From the IMG/VR virus record IMGVR_UViG_3300042154_004306: a DNA stretch of 64,000 bases. One strand, 5' to 3'. Position 1 is the stretch's first letter, and every line of letters starts with the position of its first letter. The notes beneath the pieces are model-generated. The model was not told where the DNA came from, searched no databases, and worked only from the letters and a program-made list of their open reading frames with translations. This DNA is from a virus (taxonomy: Duplodnaviria; Heunggongvirae; Uroviricota; Caudoviricetes). Shown here in pieces: positions 53,153-62,011 of this stretch. The position numbers were made by a program, and so were the translations under genes.

Positions 53153-56100
53153 ATGGCAATTAATTTAAGTGATAATATACTAGCTAAGACCACCGGGCCA
53201 GCTGACGCCAAATACGGCCCATATTCTGGAGCAAATCTGGCTGCGGCTAAAACGGCCGCGACCACGTACTTATTAGCATCATACAGATACGAAGGCTTAA
53301 CTGTTGGTTTATTGGTCGCTACCGACCCAGTTGTTGAATATTGGTTTTTAGGAGGAATCACTGACGCTAACTTAGTATTAAAGCAAACAAGCGGATCCGG
53401 AGGAACTAATGGTACATCAGGATCCTCCGGAACGTCAGGTTCAAGCGGAACTGGCGGTACATCGGGAACATCAGGTACATCGGGTTCAAGTGGTTCATCA
53501 GGCACAAGTGGAAGTTCAGGTTCAAGCGGAACATCAGGTTCTTCAGGAACATCGGGCTCAAGTGGAACATCTGGATCTTCAGGAACAAGTGGATCATCAG
53601 GTACTTCAGGAGTAATTGGAATTCCAGGAAATGACGGTTCAAATTCTCTTAGGTGGTACTGGGATAACTCAACAATATTAGTACCTACTTATTTTATAAC
53701 AACTGATGGAGCTGGCTCCGTTGAAAATAATCTTAAATTTATAACTGATATTGAGTTAGATCACTACAACTCAAATTCAATAGATAGTATTAATTGGCTT
53801 TCTGAAATAAGTAGTTTAATATCCTCTGGATTAGACGTTATATTACAGATTACTGAACCAAATAATACATCAGTTTCAGGTATTTATTACATATCATCGG
53901 ATTTGAGCACTCCATCAAGTGCTAAATACGCGCTAAATATTATAGTTGCAGATGGTTCACTTACAGATCAAAAAGAATATACAATATCTTGGGTGGCTAG
54001 TTTTTCTGGATCAGCAGGAGCATCGGGAACTAGCGGTTCATCAGGATCAAGTGGTTCGTCTGGAATTTCTGGATCTAGTGGTACATCAGGATCTGCTGGT
54101 ACTTCAGGTAGTTCAGGAAGTAGTGGATCATCAGGCTCAAGCGGTTCATCAGGTTCTTCCGGAACTAGTGGATCAACCGGTTCATCTGGATCAAGTGGTA
54201 CATCTGGATCTGCTGGAACATCAGGAACTTCTGGCTCAACTGGTACGTCCGGAACTTCAGGAAGCTCAGGAACATCCGGTTCGGCAGGTAGCTCAGGTAC
54301 TTCAGGAACAACCGGCACGTCCGGTTCTTCAGGAACAAGCGGCAGCTCAGGTACTTCTGGGACAGCCGGAACATCTGGAACATCTCCTACCGGCTTAGTT
54401 GCTTCTAATTATGTGGTTAGAGGAGTTAAAGGCGGATCTACTCAAACGATTCCAAATGCTACAGATACCATAGTAACATTCGTTGATGATTTTGATCCAA
54501 ATGGATGGTTATCTTCTAATAGAATACAACCAAATATTTCAGGTTATTACATAGTCAATGCTCAAGTTTGGTGGGACCCAGGGGCTGTTACAAATAACCA
54601 AAGTAATATCCAATTTAGCAAAAATGGATCAACTCAAATAGCTATCCATCAAACACAAATTCTTACTGGCTCTGGATATGCTCAAGAGATAGATGCTATA
54701 ATTTTCTTTAATGGAACTACTGACTATGTAGAAGTAACAGCATTCACCGGTAATCCAACATCTCAAGTAATAAATTCAGCTAATGGTGGAACATACATAG
54801 AGGCTTCTTTAATAGTAGGTGGTGGTACTAGCGGTTCTTCAGGAACAAGCGGAACTTCAGGTAGTTCTGGTTCATCTGGCACGAGTGGGTCTGCTGGAAC
54901 TTCAGGTAGCTCAGGAACGAGCGGATCTTCAGGAACATCAGGAATAAATGGATCTTCTGGAACATCAGGAATAAATGGATCTTCTGGCACAAGCGGATCT
55001 GATGGATCTTCAGGAACATCAGGAACGAGCGGATCTTCTGGAACATCAGGAATAAACGGATCTTCAGGAACATCAGGAATAAATGGATCTTCTGGCACAA
55101 GCGGATCTGATGGATCTTCAGGAACATCAGGAACGAGCGGATCTTCTGGAACATCAGGAATAAACGGATCTTCAGGAACATCAGGAATAAACGGATCTTC
55201 TGGAACATCAGGAATAAATGGATCTTCTGGCACATCAGGAGTTAACGGTTCTTCTGGAACTTCGGGATCATCGTGTTTAACTTATTTCGTATTAAATACT
55301 TCAATTAGCTCGTTTGAAACGTATTCTTATATAGATTGTGAATTTAATAGCCAGGGACCTATAGTACTACCTCCTGCTGGTAGTGCAACGTTCTGTGCAT
55401 TGGGAGATTCTGTGACAGGAGGACCTAATATAGACATCGCGTTACTTGGAATTTGTAGTGGCTCTAGCGGTTCATCAGGAACCTCAGGTTCTTCAGGAAC
55501 AAGTGGATCTAGTGGATCTTCAGGAACATCTGGTAGCACAGGATCAAGTGGATCTTCAGGAAGCTCTGGTAGCTCAGGTACATCAGGTTCATCTGGAACA
55601 TCAGGGAGCTCAGGTACATCAGGTTCATCTGGAACATCAGGTAGCTCAGGTACATCAGGTTCATCTGGAACATCAGGTAGCTCAGGTACATCAGGTTCAT
55701 CAGGAACATCAGGTAGCACAGGATCTAGCGGATCTTCAGGAAGCTCGGGATCCTCTGGAACATCAGGTTCATCAGGAACATCAGGTAGCACAGGATCTAG
55801 TGGATCTTCAGGAAGTTCTGGTAGCTCAGGCACATCCGGATCTTCTGGAAGTTCAGGAACATCTGGCTCAAGCGGTTCATCAGGCACTTCAGGATCAAGC
55901 GGTAGCTCAGGATCTGCTGGATCTTCTGGTACATCAGGTACATCGGGTACATCAGGATCATCAGGAACTTCCGGCGCAAACGGGATTTCTTCCGGACAAA
56001 TTTATTATTTTAATGAATCAGTTTCAAGCGGAATTGGTACATATAAAGAATTATCAGCTAATCCAACCGGTGCAGCTGAACAATCTATTCTTAAAACAAC

Positions 56101-62011: not shown

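Follow-up and report, generated by a model that had tools for sequence, protein, structure and literature searches.

A nearly proline-free, serine-rich collagen-like protein as a candidate distal fiber of an uncultured jumbo myophage

Described collagen-like fibers and the place of P0001

Collagen-like stalks that end in C1q/TNF-type trimers are known from several systems, and here we compare with them P0001, a collagen-like fiber protein of 2,952 residues encoded by a single open frame at positions 53153–62011 (+ strand) of a 64,000-nucleotide window (the whole stretch of DNA that was analyzed; Caudoviricetes, IMG/VR virus record IMGVR_UViG_3300042154_004306). Judged by analogy of layout, the nearest functional analogue of P0001 is BclA of Bacillus anthracis, as each protein starts with a domain for anchoring, continues in Gly-X-Y repeats whose Y residue is a hydroxy-amino acid, and closes with a C1q/TNF-like trimer at the C-terminus (predicted in the case of P0001). 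The collagen region of BclA is O-glycosylated and forms hair-like filaments, or a nap (PMC10470788, PMC8968730), and the structure model of one internal domain of P0001 (D2, see below) matches BclA structures directly. The two proteins differ in that BclA is built of Gly-Pro-Thr, is proline-rich and measures tens of nanometers, whereas P0001 is a phage protein with ~1% proline, Ser at Y, ~715 triplets and five nodes, and there is no detectable sequence homology between them.

Among phages, the nearest relatives in kind are prophage fibers of the EPclA type (EPclA/EPclB of E. coli O157:H7 prophages, PMC3368898), which are trimeric and in which, as in P0001, collagen-like stalks are part of tail-fiber genes. 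Published phage collagen fibers have tens of triplets and are rich in proline and charged residues (PMC11923368), while P0001 is ~10 times longer, is uncharged and nearly proline-free, and has a C1q-like knob at its end. In animals, C1q, C1QL1-3 and the NC1 domains of collagens VIII and X (PDB 4qpy, 1pk6, 1gr3) combine a collagen stalk with a C-terminal jelly-roll trimer that nucleates the helix, and they were among the top fold matches of the P0001 domains; however, the stalks of these animal proteins depend on hydroxyproline, and their identity to the P0001 domains is 8–16%, with no Pfam C1q match.

Precedents also exist for sugar on such proteins. In the cuticle collagen of Riftia pachyptila and in (Gly-Pro-Thr(Gal))n peptides, as these are cited in PMC11923368, glycosylated Y residues stabilize the triple helix, with Thr as the residue, galactose as the sugar and proline present, whereas P0001 has Ser, and any sugar on it may possibly be heptose. 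The TibC/Aah heptosyltransferases (BAHT, PMC4358343) hyper-glycosylate serines of repetitive adhesins, and phage loci orthologous to the one studied here encode a full-length domain of this family (TIGR04414); the known substrates, TibA and AIDA-I, are beta-helical autotransporter passengers of Proteobacteria, whereas the phage enzyme is fused to a methyltransferase and lies beyond the window. Transferases by which a virus decorates its own structural proteins are known from mycobacteriophages, where they act on the C-termini of capsid and tail-tube proteins (Freeman et al. 2023, PMC10527164, as cited in PMC12619734), and from Mimivirus, whose collagen-like fibrils are glycosylated at hydroxylysine (PMC8968730).

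At present, imino acids, hydroxyproline, charge pairs and polar hydration networks are held to account for collagen stability, glycosylated Thr being a rare exception. Reviews and a census of 58,000 collagen-like domains name as stabilizing themes X-position Pro, Y-position Thr or Gln, and salt bridges of the KGD/KGE type, and make no mention of Ser-based, proline-free tracts; nor did searches of the literature turn up any account of phage collagen that is Gly-Ser-Ser or otherwise serine-rich. P0001 is an extreme member of a recurring, unpublished collagen variant of uncultured phages, distinguished by its length and its C1q-like nodes. We consider it fairly probable that this protein forms a trimeric, collagen-like distal phage fiber.

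Glycine register, folds and the two-gene module

P0001 (~257 kDa, pI ~4.2 from the translation) consists of eight collagen-like tracts, delimited by a register script, and seven non-collagen pieces that interrupt or flank them. An N-terminal adaptor (residues 1–80, MAINLSDNI..., 53153–53392) is followed by tract 1 (residues 81–164, 28 triplets, 53393–53644), the globular insert D1 (165–285, 53645–54007), tract 2 (286–411, 42 triplets, 54008–54385), the internal C1q/TNF-like jelly-roll node D2 (412–557, 54386–54823), tract 3 (558–707, 50 triplets with GIN and GSD units among them, 54824–55273), the small four-Cys module D3 (708–769, 55274–55459), tract 4 (770–946, 59 triplets, 55460–55990), the globular insert D4 (947–1116, 55991–56500), tract 5 (1117–1467, 117 triplets, 56501–57553), the four-Cys module D5 (1468–1536, 57554–57760), which is 42% identical to D3, and tract 6 (1537–2730, 398 unbroken Gly-(Ser/Thr)-Ser triplets, 57761–61342). 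The short tracts 7 (2729–2782, 18 triplets) and 8 (2781–2795, 5 triplets), together at 61337–61537, are each preceded by a single inserted Gly (GPS-G-GSS), and the C-terminal C1q/TNF-like knob of 157 residues (2796–2952, 61538–62008) completes the protein; all of these features lie on the + strand. D1 and D4 have no assigned fold, and homologues of both are carried by modular collagen proteins other than P0001 (D1 in P0060, another modular fiber, and D4 in P0032, P0038 and P0042). By sequence, none of the seven non-collagen pieces had a significant match in Pfam, NCBIfam, PHROGs or the PDB.

Gly occupies every third residue of the eight tracts, ~715 triplets in total. The original prediction had placed such a register between about 57761 and about 61335, with some 400 triplets and Ser dominant at Y, and the script run on the translation bore it out, with 398 triplets from 57761 to 61342, no break, and Ser at 359 of the 398 Y positions (A 12, T 12, N 10, D 4 and R 1 at the others). 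The X positions of tract 6 are held by S (233), T (150), P (7) and A (5), Thr being almost restricted to X, and its most frequent triplets are GSS (215), GTS (141), GSA (11), GSN (6), GPT (6) and GAT (5), so that GSS and GTS make up 89% of the triplets and Ser 90% of Y. Over all tracts, Ser and Thr account for 93% of the X and Y positions, Pro for 1%, in agreement with the "nearly proline-free" character that had been claimed, and charged residues for 1% (14 of 2,151 tract residues). The Pfam Collagen profile (PF01391) scores 154.8 bits on residues 1537–1836, with a second score of 92.2, against a gathering cut-off of 27.2, and the tracts nevertheless lack the imino acids or Lys/Arg-Glu/Asp pairs that are the stabilizing composition typical of, though not strictly defining for, this family.

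This register is neither recent slippage nor chance, since codons and repeat units have diverged, yet the Gly positions are never substituted. All four third bases are used in the Gly codons of tract 6 and all six codons (AGY and TCN) for Ser, in background proportions; the tandem-repeat DNA units of the tracts are merely 60–80% alike; and substitutions are found at 0 of 398 Gly positions and at ~10% of Y positions. The earlier view that the SG-rich tracts are not random low complexity was thus upheld. In an orthologous locus, L043 (GT4 glycosyltransferase 87% and knob 51% identical to those of the window), the fiber open reading frame (ORF), which is truncated at its 5' end, has 467 unbroken Gly-(Thr/Ser)-Ser triplets, then GSPGPAGPTGPPGPPG where P0001 has its proline-containing zone, and then a knob like that of P0001, and L029, more distantly related within the family, has a complete ORF with a run of 322 triplets without a break. 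Together with the diverged repeats and codons and the invariant Gly, these two relatives mark the long unbroken register as a conserved, selected property; that of P0001 is the longest in a complete ORF among the sequences examined. The longest exact DNA repeat (164 bp) lies within a perfect array of 45 bp x 4.6 at 61109–61317, which accounts for ~88 of 94 repeated 77-mers (own arithmetic), so that the assembly through tract 6 is credible, array copy number aside. The array, which encodes GTSGATGPTGSSGTS and supplies most tract prolines, is the sole part of the gene that looks recently expanded, and the number of its copies may be unreliable if the assembly is from short reads. At 0.286 nm per residue, and if triple-helical, tract 6 would measure ~341 nm, in line with the ~340 nm of the original prediction, beads would be spaced by ~24, 36, 43, 51, 100 and 341 nm, and all tracts together would reach ~615 nm, which points to fibers several times longer than any characterized tail fiber and would change the estimated host-catching radius.

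Both the knob and D2 were modeled as ten-strand jelly rolls of the C1q/TNF family, in support of the earlier reading that C1q-like domains occur internally as well as at the C-terminus. The AlphaFold2 model of the knob, made from an alignment with its 4 homologues among 1.8 billion representatives, is all-beta (predicted local distance difference test, pLDDT, 80), and its best Foldseek matches (probability 1.00, target-normalized template modeling (TM) score 0.82–0.86) are the phi812 spike knob, C1QL1-3, the C1q domain of Caprin-2, collagen X NC1, C1q and TNF ligands. Of the 80 homologues of D2, many belong to phage proteins with collagen or Mtd_N, and the D2 model (pLDDT 90.6) has the same fold as the knob (probability 1.00, TM 0.78–0.82 against C1QL, Caprin-2 and TNF ligands), with BclA matched as well. 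Several D2 relatives have an Mtd N-terminal domain or a Peptidase_S74 chaperone and therefore point to host-recognition fibers. Neither domain has a Pfam match to C1q (PF00386) or TNF at E <= 1, although a distant D2 relative, P0084, has PF00386; the knob and D2 have no detectable sequence homology to each other (hhalign probability 15%), D1 and D4 are unrelated to the D2 profile, and in cultured-phage records there is no knob relative and one weak D2 match only.

The terminal knob is predicted to form a homotrimer. Three copies modeled together gave an interface score (ipSAE) of 0.87, compared with 0.00 for the best control, with at least 62% of contacts shared from run to run and a partner pLDDT of at least 77. 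Among proteins solved as one-chain pairs, 20 of 30 reach that ipSAE mark, and among those solved as single chains 1 of 23, counts which come from two copies with their own alignments and apply to the three-copy knob only roughly. Since C1q/TNF trimers are well represented among solved structures, the score speaks for likeness to them and is not proof, and the predicted knob trimer may pass by this likeness. All 12 prolines of the tracts are at X, and 11 of them fall within residues 2660–2778 (61130–61486, +), directly before the knob, in GATGPT (five times) and GPTGPTGPS (twice) units. Folding of collagen can proceed as a C-to-N zipper nucleated beside a trimerization domain (mechanism summarized in PMC11923368), and by analogy the placement of this proposed nucleation zone is the arrangement expected for it. 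From the proline zone, the invariant Gly register and the trimeric-type knobs, we infer a true triple helix in preference to a disordered Gly/Ser spacer.

The gene next upstream, P0086 (51214–53118, +; 634 residues), matches the tail-fiber PHROGs 5073, 6320 and 1806 and contains Gly-Ser/Thr-Ser collagen tracts and a C-terminal domain of ~330 residues. The adaptor of P0001 (80 residues, MAINLSDNI...YGPY...RYEGLTVG...EYWF) opens ORFs in 27 IMG/VR loci whose remainders are wildly different; Gly-Ser/Thr-Ser collagen is present in those of L015, L016/17, L018 (at least 235 triplets), L019, L022 and L029, and many others have no collagen. In ~24 of the 27 loci, a homologue of the P0086 C-terminal domain (26–91% identity) ends 1–100 nt upstream of the adaptor gene. 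Because the adaptor is conserved and a P0086-type domain adjoins it upstream, P0001 may be regarded as the swappable distal segment of a two-part phage fiber, and the conserved adjacency suggests that the P0086 C-terminal domain and the P0001 adaptor are a dock/adaptor pair, with P0086 proximal and P0001 distal. This points to a modular system of dock, adaptor and swappable beaded stalks that is seemingly widespread in uncultured freshwater phages. In L022 (1619–3505, then 3522 onward) and L034/L035 (8123–9988, then 10001 onward), the upstream protein itself has an N-terminal adaptor and a C-terminal P0086-type dock, and fiber segments may therefore be chained head to tail.

As is expected of phage fibers, P0001 lies in a structural module and joins a conserved N-terminal attachment part to a variable distal part. 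The variability extends to close strains: between L015 and window positions 43321–56000, six flanking genes are 91–99.6% identical and the adaptor is 96% identical, and the fibers differ in the order and number of tracts and domains, with D2 at residue 1202 in L015 and at residue 412 in P0001. Judging from this comparison, the fiber locus appears to be a hot spot of modular shuffling between strains; such turnover of the distal layout is typical of receptor-binding proteins and therefore in keeping with a host-binding fiber. Beyond the adaptor family, Gly-Ser/Thr-Ser tracts are common in metagenomic phage proteins, with dozens of matches that have at least 60–90% Ser+Thr and no Pro, and the longest run among the homology-search matches listed is 103 triplets. 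A search with a Gly-Ser/Thr-Ser tract also found P0126, a collagen and Mtd_N protein of 1,639 residues in L011; the contig also has genes for XRN exonuclease, Erv1/Alr, DNase II and Cu/Zn-SOD and looks closer to a giant eukaryotic virus than to a phage.

We propose that the fiber gene encodes the distal segment of a two-part virion fiber of an uncultured freshwater jumbo myophage. The C-terminal knob would bring three chains together, the short proline-containing stretch beside it would nucleate a collagen-type triple helix, and the helix would zip toward the N-terminus through ~715 Gly-(Ser/Thr)-Ser triplets interrupted by five globular nodes, with D2 re-registering the chains, provided that it trimerizes as the knob is predicted to. 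The 80-residue adaptor would dock onto the C-terminal domain of P0086, giving a thin beaded tether of ~0.6 micrometers, and the tract serines would probably be decorated by a cluster of glycosyl- and methyltransferases that starts right after the fiber gene, since the helix has neither imino acids nor charge pairs. The terminal knob, and perhaps internal nodes too, would bind the host surface, which fits the fold likeness to phage receptor-binding knobs and the differing distal layouts in near-identical strains. We lean toward this explanation as a whole, that is, with trimeric helix, docking, tether, host binding and decorated serines taken together.

Possible sugar decoration and competing explanations

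A GT4 glycosyltransferase gene (62754–63998, +) starts 740 nt past the fiber stop and runs past the window end. In the orthologous loci L042–L044, it corresponds to a 934-residue fusion of GT4 and FkbM methyltransferase, which is followed by a methyltransferase and then by a 912-residue fusion of methyltransferase and TIGR04414. The C-terminal 365 residues of the 912-residue protein of L043 score 267 bits on TIGR04414 (Aah/TibC autotransporter O-heptosyltransferase; cut-off 200) and align to TibC residues 21–381, with all four iron-finger Cys kept (CxxC...WCP...FEC), and the spacing in the orthologues would put this domain ~3.9 kb past the window end (own arithmetic). TIGR04414 homologues also lie near other Ser-type collagen fibers (L009, L016/17 and L019). 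TibC glycosylates Ser, not Thr, of repetitive adhesins (PMC4358343), and a Y position that is 90% Ser, with Thr nearly confined to X, fits a Ser-specific enzyme of the TibC type. On this basis we put the chances that the fiber serines are glycosylated at about even, and hold it doubtful that glycosylation is what stabilizes the helix; the O-glycosylation put forward in the original prediction is plausible.

A helix that occurs in nature with Gly, Ser and Thr as its only residues, and with more than 1,000 of them, would test the rules of collagen stability and would supply a simple, uncharged, recombinant-friendly collagen scaffold, its folding perhaps switched by one glycosyltransferase. If sugars did stabilize it, heptosylated Ser would be a third stabilization route beside hydroxyproline and salt bridges; the TibC/Aah family would also be extended from bacterial adhesins to probable viral substrates. 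In its most far-reaching form, which we offer as a tentative and rather unlikely idea, a collagen helix of more than 1,000 residues with essentially no proline or charge pairs would depend, for folding or stability, on dense O-heptosylation and methylation of its Y serines by a phage TibC-type enzyme, and would serve as a daisy-chained, sub-micrometer "fishing line" for hosts in dilute lake water.

Several points weigh against the proposed decorated fiber or against parts of it. Attachment to the virion is read from gene order only, and the heptosyltransferase is placed here through orthologous contigs, outside the window. Of the adaptor-family records, 3 of the 7 that have Ser/Thr collagen carry a TIGR04414 gene above the cut-off, as against 0 of the 6 that lack collagen; the difference is not significant (Fisher one-sided p ~0.12, own arithmetic), and most of the records are fragments. 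Glycosyltransferases of any kind lie beside 4 of 7 Ser-type and 2 of 5 Pro-type collagen fibers, that is, with no difference, and the transferases could act on a poly-Thr protein encoded at 47677–50157 or on host glycans. Furthermore, Ser and Thr reportedly have a low triple-helix propensity at both X and Y in host-guest data of the Persikov type. The peptide (Gly-Pro-Thr)10 is a random coil until galactosylated (PMC11923368), and for these two reasons an unmodified helix may not form.

Such an unmodified helix is nonetheless one alternative to the decorated fiber: a real triple helix might need no more than its great length, its trimeric knobs and nodes, hydration networks of Ser and Thr, and cold lake water, with the transferases serving the poly-Thr protein, the host envelope or DNA. 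The register, composition and fold evidence applies to it equally, three Ser-type fiber loci (L003, L006 and L008) show no transferase within 10 kb, transferases are just as frequent beside Pro-type fibers, as given above, and Scl2 is an example of a bacterial collagen that needs no hydroxyproline for its stability (PMC8968730). Yet proline, charge pairs and polar hydration networks are credited with stability of the Scl2 type, whereas proline and charge are each ~1% here, and a Ser-specific protein heptosyltransferase family recurs in such loci while Ser is fixed at Y and Thr kept out of it, so that we rate an undecorated helix as unlikely. Less likely again would be tracts without any helix, in the form of flexible, O-glycosylated, mucin-like bottle-brush spacers joined only at trimeric nodes. 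The composition resembles that of designed flexible GS linkers, Ser and Thr have low helix propensity, and the neighboring genes include those for transferases and for a true mucin-like poly-Thr protein; a disordered chain, however, needs no invariant Gly, which is substituted at 0 of 398 positions here and 0 of at least 467 in the orthologue, compared with ~10% of Y. Moreover, the proline triplets sit exactly where a zipper would nucleate, and the adjoining poly-Thr protein has no Gly periodicity, so that low complexity alone does not explain the register.

Polyglycine-II bundles of the kind seen in snow-flea antifreeze protein and phage gp38-type adhesins, which the original prediction named as an alternative, or another beta-rich, silk-like structure, would share the tripeptide units rich in Gly and small residues. 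Known polyglycine-II bundles have repeats of the Gly-Gly-X type with a Gly content of at least ~45%, and turns connect their short antiparallel segments; in the tracts of P0001 every third residue, and no more, is Gly, there are no turn motifs over 1,194 residues, and the tracts are flanked by trimeric-type C1q-like domains, as in collagens, and we give such a structure next to no credence. It is also very improbable that misassembly of repeats has inflated the length of a gene that is really shorter or broken. The contigs of the relatives G001, L015, L018 and L043 do end within the fiber gene or its neighbor, and the perfect 45-bp array is the kind of repeat from which such an error could arise. 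The array, however, explains nearly all of the repeated 77-mers, with little exact repetition of at least 77 nt elsewhere, the frame is open throughout 8.9 kb, and long registers recur in the independent orthologous contig (at least 467 triplets) and in the complete ORF of L029 (322).

Genome context and neighboring genes

The window belongs to an uncultured jumbo myophage. It contains a tail sheath gene (2685–5777), ribonucleotide reductase, a GroEL-like chaperonin, a neck-like protein and tail-fiber-like genes, of which the sheath, neck-like and tail-fiber-like genes lie upstream of the fiber gene, and its sheath is 25–35% identical to those of Lak megaphages and of Flavobacterium, Tenacibaculum and Sphingomonas jumbo phages, relatives that hint at a host among the Bacteroidota. 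Scans for promoters and terminators gave counts equal to those of shuffled sequence.

The gene between P0086 and the poly-Thr protein gene (50198–51154, +; 318 residues) had been taken for a glycosyltransferase in the original prediction, a role that did not hold up: neither the sequence nor a 20-sequence profile matched any glycosyltransferase, or any other entry, in Pfam, NCBIfam or the PDB. It encodes a conserved protein of phrog_4417, with no assigned function, for which a search at E <= 1e-5 finds over 1,700 homologues; the identity of the 120 listed ranges from 57 to 99%, all of these are unnamed, and the HDSD motif is invariant. The protein is probably an enzyme of some kind, and it accompanies the fiber module in one other locus only, a near-identical strain.

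Convergent with the fiber gene lies a 2OG-Fe(II) oxygenase gene (PF13640, PKHD/P4H-like; 62065–62655, −). A role as prolyl hydroxylase of the fiber is unlikely to matter much, given that the tracts have 12 prolines, all at X. A PF13640 oxygenase also adjoins a collagen/S74 fiber in L013 (16945–17511), so that the pairing occurs in two unrelated phage loci.

The poly-Thr protein itself (47677–50157, +; 826 residues), encoded three genes upstream of the fiber gene, is mucin-like, with poly-Thr linkers of the TTTTTTAAP type between Cys-containing modules of ~100 residues. Two further long ORFs stand out, one of 1,450 residues (15820–20172, −) without any PHROG match and one of 2,077 residues (34314–40547, +) with a PHROG match, of no assigned function, restricted to its first 300 residues. 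Between the neck-like and fiber genes, a protein of 450 residues (46269–47621, +) carries an Amidoligase_2 domain (E 6e-5); an enzyme of this sort is unusual in a structural module.

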